64,000 bases of DNA from Escherichia phage FP43. Positions 2,351 through 46,032 of the stretch are shown here, one piece after another. A model generated the notes under the pieces. It saw only the letters and a list, made by a program, of their open reading frames with translations, searched no databases and was not told where the DNA came from. How positions within the stretch are numbered: position 1 is the stretch's first letter; every line of letters begins with the position of its first letter. The translations under genes and the position numbers were made by a program. The stretch is from the sequence record MN648445, one strand, 5' to 3'.

Positions 2351-3268
2351 ATGGATTTAGAAATGATGTTGGATGAAGATTACAAAGAAGGTATTGCACT
2401 TGCCGACTTTAGTAACATTGCGTTGGCAGCCGCATTAAACAACTTTGAAGATGGCGATAAAATTACTGTTCCAATGGTTCGCCATGTAATATTGAATTCA
2501 ATTCGTAAAAACGTAGTGATGTTCCGTAAGCAAGGCTATACAAAATTTGTATTGTGTATGGATAATGCTACTTCAGGTTATTGGCGACGTGACTTTGCTT
2601 ACTATTACAAGAAAAATCGCAAAACCGATCGTGAAGCTTCAAAGTGGGATTGGGAAGGATATTTTACTGCACTCCATCAAGTTGTTGATGAGATTAAGAA
2701 ATACATGCCATACGTTGTAATGGATATTGACAAGTATGAAGCGGATGACCATATCGGTGTATTAACTAAATATTTGTCATTAGCTGGTCATAAGGTATGT
2801 ATTGTTGCATCAGATGGTGACTTTACACAATTACACAAATATCCTAACGTTAAACAGTGGTCGCCACCACAGAAAAAATGGGTTAAAATTAAGAATGGTT
2901 CTGCTGAAATTGATTGCATGACTAAAATTCTTAAAGGCGACCGTAAGGATGGTGTTGCATCTGTTCGAGTTCGTGGTGACTTCTGGTTTACTCGAGTTGA
3001 AGGTGAACGAACTCCAAGCATGAAAACATCAATTATTGAAGCAATTGCTAACGACCGTTCTCAAGCTGAAGTATTATTAAGTGCAGAAGAATATAAACGG
3101 TATCAAGAAAATTTGGTTCTCATTGATTTTGATTATATCCCTGATAATATTGCTTCAACCATTATAGAGTATTATAACTCGTATAAACAACAACCTAAAG
3201 GCAAGATTTATTCATACTTTGTAAAATCTGGTCTTTCTAAATTAACAAGTGTAATTAATGAATTCTGA
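2351..3268 (+). CDS. rnh: RNase H (5'-3' exonuclease / flap endonuclease)
   Basis: 305-aa ORF, same length as T4 RNase H; N-terminus MDLEMMLDEDYKEG matches T4 by recall. Confidence 0.9.
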   Translation: MDLEMMLDEDYKEGIALADFSNIALAAALNNFEDGDKITVPMVRHVILNSIRKNVVMFRKQGYTKFVLCMDNATSGYWRRDFAYYYKKNRKTDREASKWDWEGYFTALHQVVDEIKKYMPYVVMDIDKYEADDHIGVLTKYLSLAGHKVCIVASDGDFTQLHKYPNVKQWSPPQKKWVKIKNGSAEIDCMTKILKGDRKDGVASVRVRGDFWFTRVEGERTPSMKTSIIEAIANDRSQAEVLLSAEEYKRYQENLVLIDFDYIPDNIASTIIEYYNSYKQQPKGKIYSYFVKSGLSKLTSVINEF

Positions 3269-3275
3269 GGTAAAC

Positions 3276-3545
3276 ATGGCTAAGAAAGAAGCAGTTGAAT
3301 TTAATCAAGATGTGCATGGTGAAGAACTGGCTAAACTAGTCAAGGAAGCTTCCGATAACAAACTTAAAATTTCTGGTTATAATGAACTGATTAAAGACAT
3401 TCGTACTCGTGCTAAAGAAGAGCTTGGTGTCGATGGAAAAATGTTTAATCGTTTGTTAGCTCTTTATCATAAAGATGCTCGTGACCAATTTGAAGCTGAA
3501 AACGAAGAGGTAGTCGAGCTTTATGACACAGTTTTCACTAAGTGA
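3276..3545 (+). CDS. dsbA: Double-stranded DNA binding protein DsbA (late transcription enhancer)
   Basis: 89 aa from ATG 3276 (MAKKEAVEF...), RBS GAGG upstream; matches T4 DsbA length and sequence by recall; track ORF start 3258 is an upstream in-frame ATG. Confidence 0.85.
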   Translation: MAKKEAVEFNQDVHGEELAKLVKEASDNKLKISGYNELIKDIRTRAKEELGVDGKMFNRLLALYHKDARDQFEAENEEVVELYDTVFTK

Positions 3546-3861
3546 TATTAAACCGGTTGATGAGGCCGGTTTATCTGAACAAGAATTAGCAGTAAAACAT
3601 GATAAAGATGATATCGCTAAATTGCTTGACCGCCAAGAAAACGGATTCATTATCGAATCTATGGTTGAACAATTTGGTATGTCTTATTTAGAAGCAACAA
3701 CTGCTTTCTTGGAAGAAAATTCTATTCCAGAAACACAATTTGCTAAATTTATTCCTACAGGAATTGTTGAAAAAATTACAAGCGAAGCAATTGACGAAAA
3801 CATGCTTCGCCCATCAGTTGCTCGTGGTGAAAAAACTAATACGTTAGATTTCTTATTATGA
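3523..3861 (+). CDS. 33: Late transcription accessory protein gp33
   Basis: 112-aa ORF MTQFSLSDIKPVDEAGLSEQEL; same length and sequence pattern as T4 gp33; synteny. Confidence 0.85.
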   Translation: MTQFSLSDIKPVDEAGLSEQELAVKHDKDDIAKLLDRQENGFIIESMVEQFGMSYLEATTAFLEENSIPETQFAKFIPTGIVEKITSEAIDENMLRPSVARGEKTNTLDFLL

Positions 3862-5583: not shown

Positions 5584-5612
5584 GTTTACTTCCTCCAAGG
5601 ACATGATACTAT
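5584..5612 (+). promoter_or_regulatory. Early promoter
   Basis: GTTTAC, 17-nt spacer, GATACTAT; conserved downstream leader CAACAACATGAGGAAAT before ATG 5642. Confidence 0.6.
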
Positions 5613-5641
5613 AGACCTATCAACAACATGAGGAAATCAAG

Positions 5642-6028
5642 ATGGAAATCGGAAAAACTTATATCATTAACCCTTTATTTAAAGATGACTTTGTCCAAGA
5701 AGCTCCACGCAATAACAGCCGGATGCTAGATTTGATCGAGAAACATGGCCCAAGTTTTGTTGTGGAAGAAGATGAATATGATGGCGACGGCTACAACGTA
5801 GTATGTGTAACCATGGAAGATGGCACAGAATGTTCTGCTGGCGGTCCGGCAGAAACTTATTTTGAAATTTATCCTGACGAGTTCAAATACTTCAACGAGG
5901 TGACTTTAGAAAAGCCTCAACCTATTGACGAAGGTATAGTTTTAGGTGTAACAAAAATTCATTGTGTCGTGGATGAAACTAACGTTGACGAAATCATCGA
6001 ACTTTTGCAAAAAACTTTTAAAAAGTAG
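5642..6028 (+). CDS. Hypothetical protein (paralog A of tandem pair)
   Basis: 128-aa ORF MEIGKTYIINP...HGPSFVV; clear sequence similarity to next ORF; own promoter and RBS GAGGAAA. Confidence 0.6.
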   Translation: MEIGKTYIINPLFKDDFVQEAPRNNSRMLDLIEKHGPSFVVEEDEYDGDGYNVVCVTMEDGTECSAGGPAETYFEIYPDEFKYFNEVTLEKPQPIDEGIVLGVTKIHCVVDETNVDEIIELLQKTFKK

Positions 6029-17526: not shown

Positions 17527-17556
17527 GTTTACAACATGGTGGAGTTGTGATACTAT
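17527..17556 (+). promoter_or_regulatory. Early promoter
   Basis: GTTTAC 17527-17532, 18-nt spacer, TGTGATACTAT 17546-17556; leader CAACAAATGAGGAAAT. Confidence 0.6.
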
Positions 17557-17584
17557 AACTCTACCAACAAATGAGGAAATAGAA

Positions 17585-17821
17585 ATGCTAAGTGAAAACC
17601 CAATTACAGTACACGAATTTCAGATTAAAGTAAAAGAATTTGCTCAAGCACTCATCAATAAAGTGTCTGAACGTTTCCAAGATGCAACATTACGAGTTAT
17701 TCAAGAATCTCCACGTTCTTTTCTCATAATCGTTAATCCTAAAGATGGTGACCAAATTACTAATCTTAAATTAGGCAGTGATGGTCTTGTTGAAGCAACT
17801 CGAGTATATGGAACACTATAA
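17585..17821 (+). CDS. Hypothetical protein
   Basis: 78-aa ORF with GAGGAAA RBS. Confidence 0.45.
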   Translation: MLSENPITVHEFQIKVKEFAQALINKVSERFQDATLRVIQESPRSFLIIVNPKDGDQITNLKLGSDGLVEATRVYGTL

Positions 17822-26370: not shown

Positions 26371-28458
26371 ATGTCTGAACAATTAAATGAAGTGTTTGAA
26401 TCTGAAGGCAGTCTTCCTGTCGTCAATTTGAACCCTAAAGCTAAAGTTCCACAAGTCTGGAAAATTGGTGATATCGATACAAATATTGTAGTTCGTTTAT
26501 TCTCTTACCTTTCCGAAGGCGACGCTGTAAAACAAGTTAAACTTGGCGACAAATACGCTCATGTTGTTATTATGAGTCTGTCTGAAAAGGGTAATCTCGC
26601 TGAATTGAAAAATGGCCTTGGTCCTGCTCCTATTGATGCAATCAACACCATTTTCAATACAGTGTATGAACAGGTTAAAGCTCTTCGTATGGATGCAGTT
26701 CTGTTCCGATTCCCTACCAAGAAATTGAAAGGACGTGGACAACAACTTCAAACTCTTCTTGCTCGTCTAGTTTCTACTAAAACCGGTGGTCGTTTTAAAG
26801 TATTGTCTGCAATGTATCAATTCACAGGTAAACACACCTATGTGATGATGGTTCGTAAAAATGCCAACATTGAAGATATTAAAGGCATCCCTAACATTAA
26901 CACAGAGTTGTACACGAAAGTAGATTCTGATGTTGGCGAAGTTTATGTGAGTAAAAAGACTGGTGAAAAGGTCACCAAAGAAACGGCTATCGCTGGTTCT
27001 ATTGCTGCTGTAGAAGAAAAACGTAAAGATAAGCCTGTTATTGCTCGTACTAAAATTTCTCGTCGTGCTATTGCAGCAAGTCAATCTTTAGAAGCTGACC
27101 GACAAGAAGGTGAGTTATTCCAGAAATACGAAAATTCTGCTAAAGAAGTTAGTGGCCCGGCTACAGCTGAATTACTTCCTGAAGCATATGAAATTGTACT
27201 AGCCCAAGCATCGTCCACAGCAAAAGGCACTTTAGTTGCTGATATCGAAAATAAGATTTATAATCGTATTGATGAATCCTTTAAATTTGCCGATGAAGTT
27301 TCTTATGGTAGTGTTATTAAGCCGACTTTAGAAAAGTTTGCTAAGAAAATTAAAACTGAAAAAACAACATCTGTTAAAGCATTATCTGCTTTTGTTGAAG
27401 CTGCAAATGAAATTGCAGACTCTATTAAAGACGAATGGTTTGAAGATTTTAGACGTGATAATTTCCAACTGCCTGACGACGTTTTAGCTGAAGTATCTGA
27501 AAGAACTTGGAAACAACGTAAATCAGCGTTCTTGTCTAATGTGATGTATACTTATGCCCGAGAATCGGCTAGAGGCACCTTTAATATAACAATGAATCGG
27601 GACCCTAAACAATACTCTGTTGCTGAAAAACGAGCTATTCGTGAATATGCCTCTTCTGCGTATACCGATATCAATAATATGTTGTTAGGTCGTTATAAAC
27701 CGGATTTTTATGATGTTGCGGATGAAGATGAAGTTAAACGCGCTATTGATGGTCTTGATTCGGCGTTTTTAAATGGAGACCGTTTACCTGAAGGACTAAC
27801 GTTATATAGAGCTCAGTCTATCAGAATGCCTATTTACGAAGCAATGGTTAAAAATAAGGTATTCTACTTCAGAAACTATGTTTCCACTTCACTAGCTCCT
27901 ATTATTTTCGGTGGGTTTAAAGAGAACGTTGCCCTTGGACTTGCTCCTGAAGAAGTTCGCAAAGAGCTTAACATTGACAATAATGACGAAGGTGTTACTA
28001 TTTCTCCTAGTCAAGTAAGAACAGCTATGCATGCACCAGAACAAATCCGTGTTAACGTTGGATGGGCTATTGATGGCGCCCATAAAGTTAACGTGATTTA
28101 TCCAGGACAGTTGAGTAATCACCCTAATGAGCAAGAAATTATTTTGCCTAGAGGCATTCTCTTGCAGATAAATAAAATTACAGATGCGTCATCTGATACT
28201 GGTGCAGGTTTAGAATCCAACCTTAAATTTATTCAAGCTGAAGTTATGTCCTCAGACCAGTTGGATGAAGCCGTCATTTATGATGGTGATGTTCTCATGG
28301 AAACAGGCGAGGTGGTTGCTATGACGGGTGAAATCGAATCAGATGAGCCGGTATCGTTCTCCTCATTTGTAGAAAAAACTAGTGCACCTAAAGGTTTGAA
28401 ATTGTTAGCATCTTTAATGGATTTAGAATCAGTTCCGTTTAAATTTGTCCAAGGATAG
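26371..28458 (+). CDS. alt: ADP-ribosyltransferase Alt
   Basis: 695-aa ORF; C-terminal region with ART-like segment (GLTLYRAQS, VFYFRNYVSTSL); C-terminus MPYKFVQG-like ending (SVPFKFVQG); synteny next to gene 30. Confidence 0.85.
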   Translation: MSEQLNEVFESEGSLPVVNLNPKAKVPQVWKIGDIDTNIVVRLFSYLSEGDAVKQVKLGDKYAHVVIMSLSEKGNLAELKNGLGPAPIDAINTIFNTVYEQVKALRMDAVLFRFPTKKLKGRGQQLQTLLARLVSTKTGGRFKVLSAMYQFTGKHTYVMMVRKNANIEDIKGIPNINTELYTKVDSDVGEVYVSKKTGEKVTKETAIAGSIAAVEEKRKDKPVIARTKISRRAIAASQSLEADRQEGELFQKYENSAKEVSGPATAELLPEAYEIVLAQASSTAKGTLVADIENKIYNRIDESFKFADEVSYGSVIKPTLEKFAKKIKTEKTTSVKALSAFVEAANEIADSIKDEWFEDFRRDNFQLPDDVLAEVSERTWKQRKSAFLSNVMYTYARESARGTFNITMNRDPKQYSVAEKRAIREYASSAYTDINNMLLGRYKPDFYDVADEDEVKRAIDGLDSAFLNGDRLPEGLTLYRAQSIRMPIYEAMVKNKVFYFRNYVSTSLAPIIFGGFKENVALGLAPEEVRKELNIDNNDEGVTISPSQVRTAMHAPEQIRVNVGWAIDGAHKVNVIYPGQLSNHPNEQEIILPRGILLQINKITDASSDTGAGLESNLKFIQAEVMSSDQLDEAVIYDGDVLMETGEVVAMTGEIESDEPVSFSSFVEKTSAPKGLKLLASLMDLESVPFKFVQG

Positions 28459-28487
28459 TTTACAAACACATGGATGTGTGATACTAT
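28458..28487 (+). promoter_or_regulatory. Early promoter
   Basis: GTTTAC 28458-28463 overlapping alt stop, 18-nt spacer, TGTGATACTAT; leader CAACAACATGAGGAAA. Confidence 0.6.
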
Positions 28488-28516
28488 CATCCCATCAACA
28501 ACATGAGGAAAACGTT

Positions 28517-41164: not shown

Positions 41165-41359
41165 ATGAGAGCTGAAGTTGAAGTTTATACATTACATGAG
41201 GCGGGATTTTCATTCGTAGAAATTGCTCAAAAAATTGGTTTACAACCTAAAGAAGTTGGATTACTATGGACTAAAGCCGAGACAGCTCGGTCAAAGTTTA
41301 AAGCAAAAGAAAAAGTTGTATACCGTAAACGTTTGATTAACAAAAAGGTGAAGAAATGA
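41165..41359 (+). CDS. Small basic protein with helix-turn-helix-like segment
   Basis: 64-aa ORF; GFSFVEIAQKIGLQPKEV resembles an HTH; Lys/Arg-rich C-terminus. Confidence 0.4.
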   Translation: MRAEVEVYTLHEAGFSFVEIAQKIGLQPKEVGLLWTKAETARSKFKAKEKVVYRKRLINKKVKK

Positions 41360-42757: not shown

Positions 42758-44041
42758 TTATTCATCTATAATAATTTTAGGCAATTTAACACCGAGTAAA
42801 ACAGACAAGTCTGAACGTCCTGCCATTTTATCCATGTCCCCGCCATCAATTACTCTCGCTTCTTTTTCATCTTTTGCTACTGTGTAAGGATTTGCTGATA
42901 AAGCATATCTAACCAATAAACCTATAGACGGTTGTAAGCTTTCCGGATCAACTACAACTTTAAATGCACCGACATGTTCCGGGTCGTCTAAATCCATTCC
43001 TTCAGTGTATGGAGCATAAAAGATGGACCCTACAATCTCTTTTTCGCCGATATTTTCTACAACACCCACAATAACATAATCTAACGGACTGTTGGTATCG
43101 CAGTAAAGAGGTAATCCATTTGCCAAGAATCCATAAGCATTTTGTGAAAGATACTTATCATCTTCCGGCTTATGTTTTAACCAACCAGAAGCAGCAAGAA
43201 TAGCAGCTGCACGAGCTGAAGCTACGCAAAACGTTGCAGTATAAGTTGACTCTTTTTGGATATGCGAAACCATTTCACACACCATTCGATATAACGAACG
43301 ACCTGCTTCCGGAGCAGATGCATAACTCAAGTCAATAAATCCGGTGTCAGTAATTCCAGTAACTTTATAACGTTTAGATACAGTAATTAAAGACTGAAGA
43401 ATATCTTTATTAATTTCATCAGCCATTTCAGTAGCAAGCAAATCTTCTAAGAAGTTAGGGGCATCAAATCCATTCGCTTCTAAATCTTGCGCTAATTCAA
43501 CCGTGAGGCCGGTTTTAAGTTTACGAGATTTGACTGAAGTTTGCCATTTATTAATCTGGAATCTTGCATCAGAAATTTCGCTACCAGAGCTTTCAAATTT
43601 GCTTGTTACCGCTGCATCTGAAAATAGCCGTACCTTTAAATGAACGACCGCAATCTGAAGAGCTAATTCTAGATCACTTTCCTGAATATCTGCAAACGGC
43701 GTATCTTCTAACACTTTATAGACGATATTATTATATTTGAAAAAATCACCTTTATTTAGTGTGACTTTTGATTCTTCTGTGAGCTCAGTAATTTTTTCTC
43801 GGTCTACATATCCAGCTTCGCCTGCATAAGTAGCACCAGTTTTAAATGTTAATTCGTTGTCTGGGTTAAGATATTTAATACCATAAAAAGCAGCAACAGG
43901 TTGATTAGTTCTTTGTGTTGCCACAATGTCAGAATATATTAATTTAGTCGTAGCGCGAGTCAAAGCAACGAGATTTGGGCGACCGATTGAGTTGCTAGTA
44001 GACGTTGTAGATTCACGCAATAATTTTTGGATTTTACTCAT
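42758..44041 (-). CDS. 24: Head vertex protein gp24
   Basis: 427-aa ORF, same length as T4 gp24; gp23-like fold sequence. Confidence 0.95.
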   Translation of the reverse strand: MSKIQKLLRESTTSTSNSIGRPNLVALTRATTKLIYSDIVATQRTNQPVAAFYGIKYLNPDNELTFKTGATYAGEAGYVDREKITELTEESKVTLNKGDFFKYNNIVYKVLEDTPFADIQESDLELALQIAVVHLKVRLFSDAAVTSKFESSGSEISDARFQINKWQTSVKSRKLKTGLTVELAQDLEANGFDAPNFLEDLLATEMADEINKDILQSLITVSKRYKVTGITDTGFIDLSYASAPEAGRSLYRMVCEMVSHIQKESTYTATFCVASARAAAILAASGWLKHKPEDDKYLSQNAYGFLANGLPLYCDTNSPLDYVIVGVVENIGEKEIVGSIFYAPYTEGMDLDDPEHVGAFKVVVDPESLQPSIGLLVRYALSANPYTVAKDEKEARVIDGGDMDKMAGRSDLSVLLGVKLPKIIIDE

Positions 44042-44067: not shown

Positions 44068-44075
44068 TATTTATA
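44068..44075 (-). promoter_or_regulatory. Late promoter (TATAAATA) for gene 24
   Basis: Exact TATAAATA on minus strand 27 nt upstream of gene 24 ATG. Confidence 0.65.
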
Positions 44076-44081
44076 AAGATT

Positions 44082-44111
44082 GTTTACAACGTATTTGGTA
44101 TGTGATACTAT
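44082..44111 (+). promoter_or_regulatory. Early promoter inside the late head-gene block
   Basis: GTTTAC 44082-44087, 18-nt spacer, TGTGATACTAT ending 44111. Confidence 0.6.
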
Positions 44112-44141
44112 AGACTTATCAACTACAGAGGAGTAAACAAA

Positions 44142-44411
44142 ATGACTAAAGCACGTTTCTTACGAGATACTTTAAAAGTTCTGGAAGCTGAAGCAGTTAA
44201 GTTAGTAGAAAAATATGGTGCAAAAGTTAATGGTAATGCCTTCAACAAAGTATGGATGAAAGTTGATTCTGAAGCTCGAGCTAAAGGTTATTGGGCCACT
44301 GATAAACTTGCATCATTCAAAAACAAAGACGGTTCTCCAGCATATGTCCAAGAAGGTATGCCTAATTGGCAAAATATTTTGAAAACTTACATCGAAATTG
44401 CACAGAAATAA
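44142..44411 (+). CDS. Hypothetical protein encoded antisense to the surrounding late genes
   Basis: 89-aa ORF with RBS GAGGAG and its own early promoter, between genes 24 and 23. Confidence 0.5.
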   Translation: MTKARFLRDTLKVLEAEAVKLVEKYGAKVNGNAFNKVWMKVDSEARAKGYWATDKLASFKNKDGSPAYVQEGMPNWQNILKTYIEIAQK

Positions 44412-44439
44412 AACCAAAAATGGGAGACCGAAGTCTCCC
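44411..44439 (-). terminator. Rho-independent terminator for gene 23 transcript
   Basis: GGGAGAC-CGAA-GTCTCCC (reverse complement of the gene 32 terminator stem) followed on minus strand by ATTTTTGGTTT. Confidence 0.7.
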
Positions 44440-44463
44440 AAAATAAGATTTAATCAATTAAGA

Positions 44464-46032
44464 TTAGATGCCTTTTACATATACACGGCGGAAGTAAGCG
44501 TTCTTACCAAGGCTGTTCAGGATAGACGGCATACCGGACTGGATGCGAGCACCTGGAGCCTGCAGGGAACTTTCAGCAAACGGGTTAACACCGATACCGT
44601 AACGAGTTTTAAAGCCCATTACCGGCTGGAAGTTCTTAGGATCGGAACCACGCAGTGGGGTAAGTGCAACGTAAGGAGCATAGTAGATACCTGCATCCAT
44701 TTCGTTAGCGCCTTTGTAACCAACGGTGAAGTAATCCTGTTTAGCATACTGGTCGATGTATACGCGGTATTTACCACCAAGTACACCGGCAAATACAGAC
44801 TTAGTAGTGTCGGTATTAAAACCAGAAGCCAGACCCTGTGCAGCGTAAGAAATACCAGTATCAACTGAAGCCAGTACGTTAACTACGTTACGGGAAGCGA
44901 TAATGAAGTTACCTTCACCACGACCGGTTTGACGAGCAATTTCAACTGCTTCTTTATCAATCTGGAACAACAGAGATTTAAAGCTTTCACCGGCCCAACG
45001 AGCACCACGGATATCAATCGGGTCCTGGAAGTCAAATACACCAGCTTTAGAACCCGGAGTCAGGGTCATACCGGATTTACCAACCTGTGCTGAGTAGTTA
45101 ATCCAATCAACAACTTCACGGTTGATTTCTAGCATAATTTCTGTAGCCAGAATACCGCTCAGTTCAGCATCAGCATCCATACCGTGTACTGCACGGAGGT
45201 CTTGTGCTAATTCGATAGAGTAAGCAGCTTTCAGCTGGCGAGATTTAGCTTCGATAACTTGTTTATCGATACGGAAGCCCATTTCATTCCATGGGTTATC
45301 GGTAGAACCGTTGAAACCTTCCTGGAGTTCAGCGATAGAAGTAGCCATACCTTCAGCGATTTCTACCAGTGCACCGGCTTCCATTTGTTTCTTAACTTCT
45401 GCATCTAATTTAGCTGCATCAGTTGCACCAGAATCAAGTGTTACGACAGCAGAAGCTTGCAAATATACAGTACCAGTTTCTTGGAAGAAGTGAGTATAGA
45501 TATCACCTACAACAGTAGTAGTGTCAGCAGCCAGAGCTGGGAATTTCTTAGCAGCACCCTGACCAGAGAACATCGCGTCTGGGGCATACATCGGATGGAA
45601 AGCTTCTTTAGCGCCAGCAGCGATAGGGTCTTTACCATATACTGCACGGAGAGCAAATACCTGACCGGTCGGGCTGTTCATAGGCTGAACACCACAAATA
45701 TCAAAAGCGATCAGATTAGGAATAGCACGACGAACCATACCCATAACTGCCGGCCCAATTTGGGTTACTGCACCAGAGGTTTGACCTGCTGCGATGTTCT
45801 GAGCATTATAACCATGGTCACCACCAATTTCAGCTTCGGTCAAGAAAGAACCAAATGCCTGAGCGATTTTCTCGTCTTTATATTCAGGGGATACTTCGAA
45901 ATCTTTTTCCTGGTTTTCGAAGATTTTAGCGATAATAGCCTGCTTGCTATTAGCGATTTCCGGCAGGCCTTCACCTTCCAGCAGTTCTTTCCATTTGTCT
46001 ACGAGCTGAGCTTTAGTTTTGATAGTAGTCAT
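44464..46032 (-). CDS. 23: Major capsid protein gp23
   Basis: 522-aa ORF MTTIKTKAQLVDKWKELLEGEGLPEIANSKQAIIAKIFENQEKDF matches T4 gp23 by recall. Confidence 0.98.
   Translation of the reverse strand: MTTIKTKAQLVDKWKELLEGEGLPEIANSKQAIIAKIFENQEKDFEVSPEYKDEKIAQAFGSFLTEAEIGGDHGYNAQNIAAGQTSGAVTQIGPAVMGMVRRAIPNLIAFDICGVQPMNSPTGQVFALRAVYGKDPIAAGAKEAFHPMYAPDAMFSGQGAAKKFPALAADTTTVVGDIYTHFFQETGTVYLQASAVVTLDSGATDAAKLDAEVKKQMEAGALVEIAEGMATSIAELQEGFNGSTDNPWNEMGFRIDKQVIEAKSRQLKAAYSIELAQDLRAVHGMDADAELSGILATEIMLEINREVVDWINYSAQVGKSGMTLTPGSKAGVFDFQDPIDIRGARWAGESFKSLLFQIDKEAVEIARQTGRGEGNFIIASRNVVNVLASVDTGISYAAQGLASGFNTDTTKSVFAGVLGGKYRVYIDQYAKQDYFTVGYKGANEMDAGIYYAPYVALTPLRGSDPKNFQPVMGFKTRYGIGVNPFAESSLQAPGARIQSGMPSILNSLGKNAYFRRVYVKGI

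Follow-up and report, generated by a model that had tools for sequence, protein, structure and literature searches.

In the spacer between head genes 24 and 23 of Escherichia phage FP43, we recovered what is most probably a self-contained early cassette, consisting of an early promoter, a short leader with a Shine-Dalgarno (SD) sequence, and an 89-aa orphan ORF, whose product is dispensable and acts in trans as an accessory factor; we assign this reading, for a phage of the Mosigvirus group, a probability of roughly 0.7. The window analyzed is a 64,000-nucleotide stretch of the FP43 genome (record MN648445), and coordinates refer to it unless another locus is named. All the elements that the original prediction had picked out, namely the ORF, its GAGGAG motif, the early promoter, the late promoter, and the hairpin, lie where it had placed them (Table 1). 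Its presentation of the feature as new did not hold up: over 200 genomes already carry an annotation of the gene, and the identical promoters and terminator of RB69 were predicted in 2006; cassettes of this type have been described as well. Databases list the product as a 'hypothetical protein', and the value of the finding is correspondingly modest; it lies in part in a clean three-state slot (empty, homing endonuclease, or orphan early gene) inside the otherwise rigid head module of T-even phages.

By its sequence, the window can be assigned to a Mosigvirus, an RB69-like T-even phage (Tevenvirinae), with 701 bases around the locus being 99.3–99.9% identical to many Mosigvirus genomes, such as phiEC1, PhAPEC2, JS09, and HX01. 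On the + strand, the gene order at the locus is hoc, 24.3, 24.2, and rnlB, the last of which lies upstream of the ORF and ends in a strong bidirectional terminator, while the − strand carries genes 24, 23, 22, 21, 68, and 67, i.e., the head-gene block of T4. The slot is bounded by the 5' side of gene 24, which ends at 44041, and the stop codon of gene 23 at 44464, both on the − strand; within it, the cassette extends over ~336 bp (about 44076–44411), with the late promoter of gene 24 on one side and the terminator of gene 23 on the other. Farther upstream, an early-type promoter pattern was observed at 41238–41267, within a 24.3-like ORF (41165–41359) and upstream of a 24.2-like ORF, which recalls the promoters that a review reports upstream of or within T4 24.2.

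Table 1. Features of the gene 24/gene 23 junction in the FP43 window
Feature	Coordinates	Strand	Remarks
Gene 24 (capsid vertex protein)	42758..44041	−	427-aa ORF; annotated gp24 homolog in PhAPEC2; left flank of slot
Gene 24 late promoter core TATAAATA	44068..44075	−	26 nt upstream of gene 24 ATG
Early (sigma-70) promoter, T4-type	44082..44111	+	−35 GTTTACA 44082–44088; extended −10 TGaTACTAT 44103–44111
Shine-Dalgarno GAGGAG	44128..44133	+	8 nt before ATG
89-aa ORF, intact form of RB69ORF188c/189c (phrog_6003)	44142..44411	+	ATG start, TAA stop
Gene 23 intrinsic terminator	44421..44440	−	8-bp stem, UUCG loop; U-tract on − strand only
Gene 23 (major capsid protein)	44464..46032	−	522-aa ORF and annotation; right flank of slot

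The ORF matches phrog_6003, a family of unassigned function, over its entire length (E 2.1e-45; residues 1–89 against profile positions 1–90 of 90) and is 99–100% identical to proteins annotated as RB69ORF188c-like. Searches with tblastn recovered 239 phage records, 237 of which cover at least 80% of the protein. These fall into about 120 Mosigvirus records at 90% identity or above and 119 records at 30–38% identity, representing Gaprivervirus (VR20) and Dhakavirus (WG01, 04086, and KIT01). An intact 89-aa ORF is present at 95% identity or above in about 117 other Mosigvirus records. The same antisense position between genes 23 and 24 is occupied in PhAPEC2 (whose annotation reads 'similar to RB69ORF188c'), RB69, VR20, WG01, 04086, KIT01, G28, and a 173-kb metagenomic T-even contig (L008), the homolog of which shares 61% identity with the FP43 protein and keeps both place and orientation. 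Across genera and including this contig, the slot homologs are 30–62% identical. An exhaustive HMM search covering 1.84 billion representatives returned only nine hits, adding a few phage and metagenome relatives. Two long hits among them, P0024 (cytochrome b5 repeats) and P0025 (Ig repeats), were rejected as chance matches inflated by repeats. The JGI name 'NADPH-dependent curcumin reductase CurA' for P0006 (L008 4001–4273) is an evident misannotation of a 90-aa phage protein. No paralog of the ORF was found within the window.

The conserved antisense 23/24 position has one exception, in the Acinetobacter phage ABPH49 (Vequintavirinae, outside Straboviridae), which encodes a distant homolog of ~29% identity with a GTG start (3495–3761 of its locus, L006). 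There, the gene sits in a run of small hypothetical genes on the same strand, with GC hairpins bearing GAAA loops on either side. Disrupted copies were also noted. In the RB69 reference record (NC_004928, 8292–8532 in locus coordinates), two indels (+1 and −1) and a cluster of mismatches split the gene into ORF189c (29 aa) and ORF188c (41 aa), whereas the FP43 ORF is intact at 89 aa; the split may reflect either a sequencing error or the loss of a dispensable gene in laboratory stocks. The gene of phage mogra is likewise frameshifted.

Comparison of the homologs indicates that the ORF is under purifying selection, because dN/dS is 0.09–0.15 wherever dS is unsaturated; the differences are concentrated at third codon positions. 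All homologs are 84–93 aa long with a pI of 9.3–9.7, and they share the invariant residues K3, F6, L21, N30-G31-N32-A33, N35, A45, W51, and Q70. The family nonetheless evolves rapidly, with identity dropping to ~33% where the C-terminal 170 residues of gp23 are still ~85% identical. The claim that a gene lies on the strand opposite the late head genes is thus borne out by its conservation across genera and a dN/dS of ~0.1, and the pattern of substitution points to a genuine protein-coding gene. That it might be a chance ORF, as its shortness, lack of a known domain, and antisense location within a late-gene block could suggest, is refuted by the 239-record conservation, the invariant residues, and the dN/dS, together with length and position kept at 30% identity over three genera, a consistent and confident predicted fold, and strong SD and promoter elements.

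The promoter upstream of the ORF has a 17-nt spacer, measured from TTTACA, and transcription is inferred to start near 44118. A generic sigma-70 scan of the region is unenriched (14 sites against 18 expected), although the site at 44082–44111 is the only one in it with a TG extension. The significance of the promoter therefore rests on the phage-specific early pattern GTTTAC-N17-19-TANNAT, which occurs 12 times in the window, in all cases on the + strand, against 0.93 expected. When aligned, these 12 sites display a stereotyped module of TGa/tTACTAT, AGACyTATCAACwA, and GAGGA 15–18 nt past the −10, which the 44082 site fits closely; the same SD placement, 15–18 nt after the −10, is seen in 8 of the 12, the 44082 site included. 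The ribosome-binding site originally predicted for the ORF is confirmed as a good Shine-Dalgarno sequence. Sites with the stereotyped module include 5584–5642, 17527–17585, 28458–28516, and 44082–44141, and resemble PeSL elements. At the 44082 site, TTTACA-N17-TACTAT fits the T4/PST PeSL promoter consensus TTTACW-N17-TAYWAT at every position.

Comparison with relatives supports the assignment of this promoter to the phage's own early class, as originally proposed. RB69 and the window have the same sequence over the stretch running from the late promoter to the −10 inclusive, and the RB69 version was predicted as the early promoter Pe:109605 with an HMM score of 29.9 (Nolan et al. 2006 supplement), which maps to ~44068–44118 of the window. 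The Pe:109605 model takes in TATTTATA, which on the opposite strand constitutes the late promoter of gene 24; hence, the early and late promoters physically overlap. The −35 is kept in WG01, VR20, and G28 and differs by a single base in the L008 contig, KIT01, and T4, and the conservation of this block stands despite saturation of the ORF at synonymous sites. Upstream of the ORF, we found neither a MotA box nor a + strand late promoter (the latter sought over 1.1 kb), and since rnlB ends in a bidirectional terminator, the ORF is likely to depend on its own early promoter. By analogy with T4 segD, whose RNA is of the early class, the ORF would be transcribed early, by the host RNA polymerase. 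A significant stem-loop in the promoter element was not detected when 44076–44141 was folded as DNA (z = −1.18, equaled by 29 of 200 shuffles), and the sole helix in this fold is a long-range, unconserved 8-mer pairing. An 8-nt inverted repeat, TTGTTTAC (44080–44087) and GTAAACAA (44133–44140), flanks the promoter and leader; we considered it as an element and set it aside as probably due to chance, given its non-significant folding and its lack of conservation in Dhakavirus, Gaprivervirus, and T4.

The late promoter of gene 24 lies back to back with this early promoter: TATAAATA is separated by 6 nt from the first base of the latter and, when read on the + strand, constitutes the A/T-rich region upstream of it. 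This late core occurs 19 times in the window against 6.8 expected, is kept in both occupied and empty versions of the slot, and was published for RB69 as Pl:109573 (Nolan et al. 2006 supplement). A second pair of the same kind was observed between a long − strand gene running off the start of the window and a 305-aa + strand ORF (2351–3268), with a late TATAAATA core (−, 2278–2285) lying 3 nt from an early promoter (+, 2289–2318); by size and position, the two flanking genes look like gene 34 and rnh. Back-to-back divergent late and early promoters are routine in the FP43 genome.

As had been suggested, we compared the contents of this junction among relatives. No insert is present in Tequatrovirus Paracelsus, in Jiaodavirus KpV477 and PSE-D1, or in Karamvirus AS6; there, the empty slot is reduced to 81–85 bp, with nothing but the late promoter of gene 24, a run rich in A, and the hairpin. 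In the phage collection, contiguous 23/24 junctions were found in up to 597 records, a count that takes in a few records joined across an insert, such as Tequatrovirus G28; segD-type junctions were found in 53 T4-type records, and the ORF188c family in 239. The ORF family is kept in the same slot across three genera, and the other states are either empty or segD, so that on these alignments the slot behaves as a presence/absence/replacement polymorphism. Tequatrovirus vB_EcoM-G28 (locus 730–1132) carries a complete Dhakavirus-type cassette, with promoter, 88-aa ORF, and hairpin, and the encoded protein shares 97% identity with its WG01 counterpart, which shows a recent exchange at the slot and movement of the cassette between T-even genera as a unit. 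As a separate observation on the flank, gene 24 is tandemly duplicated in VR20 (L002 830–3394), WG01 (L003 836–3399), and the L008 contig (1337–3901), and present as a single copy in the FP43 window, Dhakavirus KIT01, and T4; the record of 04086 lists one gene 24, although its annotation is sparse.

On the other side of the cassette, the hairpin starts 9 nt past the ORF stop codon and is, as predicted, shared with gene 23. Read on the + strand, it consists of the GC-rich arms TGGGAGAC-cgaa-GTCTCCCA, and on the − strand, it reads as a UUCG loop followed by AUUUUUGGUUUU, with the U-tract on this, the gene 23 strand. Its folding energy is −13.5 to −16.8 kcal/mol, with z-scores of −5.1 and −3.7 relative to shuffled sequences. 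Hairpin and U-tract align in all states of the slot, empty ones included, which assigns the hairpin to gene 23 and places the insert between the late promoter and the terminator. Examined as a bidirectional terminator, which calls for a U-tract on both strands, the FP43 hairpin qualifies on the − strand only, and no canonical terminator was found on the + strand after the ORF, where the tail past the hairpin is AAAAUAAGAUUU. With no U-tract on that strand, some antisense read-through into gene 23 is plausible. For RB69, too, the TransTerm prediction of '23-><-RB69ORF188c' is confined to the strand of gene 23 (Nolan et al. 2006 supplement).

This arrangement bears directly on the suggested effect of convergent early transcription on the expression of gene 23. 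In its strongest form, the main job of the promoter would be to drive RNA polymerase convergently through the gene 23 terminator, setting the timing or level of gp23 by anti-late RNA or transcriptional interference, with the ORF being secondary. Such a role is compatible with the + strand hairpin tail and the one-sided TransTerm call, with the overlap between the upstream A/T region of the early promoter and the gene 24 late promoter, and with the presence in T4 of a promoter of the same layout at the same place in front of a different cargo, segD; anti-late RNA in T4 is, moreover, a classical observation. We nevertheless consider it unlikely. In several hundred relatives, the whole cassette including its promoter is missing, while gene 23 and its terminator are kept, as is the late promoter of gene 24, and in VR20 (Gaprivervirus) the hairpin has U-tracts on both strands. 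In T4, late transcription begins only after the early promoters have been turned off, which would separate the two activities in time. The strong purifying selection on the ORF and the occurrence of the ABPH49 homolog in an unrelated context also argue against it, the likeness of the T4 promoter may reflect only the shared early-promoter consensus, and back-to-back late and early promoters, as in the 2278–2318 pair, are routine in this genome. The suggestion in its original form was therefore not sustained; in a weaker variant, an early promoter in the slot, independent of its cargo, may still make anti-late RNA against gene 23.

Turning to the protein, it is basic (pI 9.6) and, in an AlphaFold model built on a 14-sequence alignment (pLDDT 89, pTM 0.74), is predicted to form a three-helix bundle (helices 3–25, 31–48, and 76–88) with a β-hairpin (52–70). 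This model replaced a first one from a 5-sequence alignment, which was too weak to use (pLDDT 68). The remote homology search proposed for the protein succeeded in so far as it yielded phrog_6003 and a few distant relatives, but it provided no match to a functional family or fold. Pfam returned only a sub-threshold match to DUF4859 (17.9 bits against a cutoff of 22.6), NCBIfam nothing meaningful, and a PDB sequence-profile search chance hits only (E of 0.026 or above), while comparison of the helical-bundle model with known folds gave no match. A search of Rfam around the locus produced only sub-threshold noise, and literature searches for RB69ORF188c and for a Mosigvirus transcriptome retrieved nothing usable.

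These results also weigh on the idea that the cassette is a selfish mobile element, in which a homing function, encoded by the ORF or associated with it, would account for its spread into the slot, as with segD in T4. The same slot does hold a free-standing GIY-YIG endonuclease in T4-type phages, and transfer of the cassette between genera has occurred, G28 being an example. Yet the product is only 89 aa long, shows no GIY-YIG, HNH, or other domain in Pfam or NCBIfam, and has a predicted helical-bundle fold for which no nuclease-like match was obtained. The transfer could equally well be explained by homologous recombination in the flanking genes 23 and 24, which are highly conserved, and we regard a homing function as improbable. 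Marginally less credible again is a head-related protein with a role in capsid assembly, or packaged as an internal or decoration protein: its position among head genes and a sub-threshold match to phrog_8765, 'internal virion protein', would be in keeping with this, but that match is not significant (E 0.09), the gene is encoded on the opposite strand behind an early-type promoter, the 1.1 kb upstream contain no late promoter in its orientation, and the gene is missing from most T-even phages with the same head genes.

The early accessory cassette thus stays as the preferred reading, and the following course of events can be proposed for it. Unmodified host sigma-70 RNA polymerase would start near 44118 within the first minutes of infection and produce a message of ~300 nt, whose translation would yield the small basic protein with its three-helix bundle and β-hairpin. 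The transcript would be stopped or trimmed at the gene 23 hairpin; alternatively, it may run a short way antisense into gene 23 and be ended by Rho or decay. Acting in trans, the protein would be a dispensable accessory factor, neither a component of the capsid nor a regulator of capsid genes, and likeliest a stoichiometric binder of a host or host-defense component, serving host takeover or counter-defense. This role appears the likeliest for a gene that is early and dispensable, evolves fast, encodes a basic protein, and is exchanged horizontally; it draws on the analogy with other small early T-even proteins, and our confidence in its specifics is low.

A bolder version, which we put forward tentatively as possible but doubtful, would make the ORF188c-family protein a new immediate-early effector that neutralizes a host function or an anti-phage defense of some enterobacterial hosts. 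The family has an orphan fold of helix–helix–β-hairpin–helix order, its NGNAxN loop is invariant and its basic charge conserved, and an effector of this kind would explain its fast evolution, its patchy distribution, and its exchange between T-even genera and even with a Vequintavirinae phage. Regardless of the precise role, the family is a candidate for early accessory and counter-defense screens, because it is small, fast-evolving, horizontally exchanged, and without structural match.

Among known systems, the closest counterpart is RB69ORF188c/189c, which represents the same gene in the same slot and on the same strand, with cassette DNA ~93% identical and promoter and terminator identical; PhAPEC2 gp220, JS98 gp173, and VR7 gp190 are further homologs of RB69ORF188c (phrog_6003). 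More generally, on its sequence features, the element fits the promoter-plus-orphan-gene cassettes of T4-type phages, described as PeSL + ORFan cassettes (Arbiol et al. 2010, PMC2839356; Comeau et al. 2014, PMC4122927). With these, it shares an A/T-rich region, a sigma-70-like early promoter, an SD sequence, a small orphan ORF, and a stem-loop boundary, as well as the presence/absence/replacement polymorphism among close relatives and the property of bringing its own expression signals. Unlike in PeSLs, no significant stem-loop is present in the FP43 promoter element, and the strong stem-loop is instead the terminator of gene 23, located at the ORF's 3' end; a promoter element occurs on one side only, with that terminator as the other boundary. 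The FP43 cassette also stands alone within the conserved virion module rather than in a hyperplastic region, and PeSL + ORFan cassettes are reported to be uncommon in that module.

A parallel can also be drawn with the 'morons' of lambdoid phages, in which a single non-essential gene with its own promoter is likewise inserted into a conserved late operon region, with one of that region's genes on either side, and is transcribed independently of its neighbors. Morons belong to prophages, whereas the FP43 cassette uses the lytic early promoter of a virulent phage, and in contrast to morons, which are autonomous promoter–gene–terminator insertions, its own strand carries no dedicated terminator in this window.

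Finally, T4 segD is inserted at the corresponding point, flanked by the late promoter of gene 24 and the UUCG/CGAA hairpin of gene 23, in the same antisense orientation, confirming the original placement of this gene at the junction. The cargo is unrelated, a 223-aa GIY-YIG protein as against the 89-aa helical protein without nuclease motifs, and tblastn of the latter against the T4 record gave no hit. In T4 (NC_000866; L005 7234–7300, − strand of the locus), an ATTTACA-N17-TGaTATTAT element upstream of segD, directly next to the late promoter of gene 24, shares the layout of the FP43 early promoter, and the CGAA/UUCG hairpin follows segD. According to a 2010 review, no segD-specific promoter had been identified, and the transcript was supposed to be vanishingly rare; in time-resolved T4 omics, segD RNA is early, the protein is classed as middle, and SegD is detected (PMC9697503 supplement). 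The comparison with FP43 thus provides a hint that T4 segD, though said to be promoterless, sits behind an early-type promoter of the same position and layout, and ATTTACA-N17-TGaTATTAT may be the missing segD promoter.
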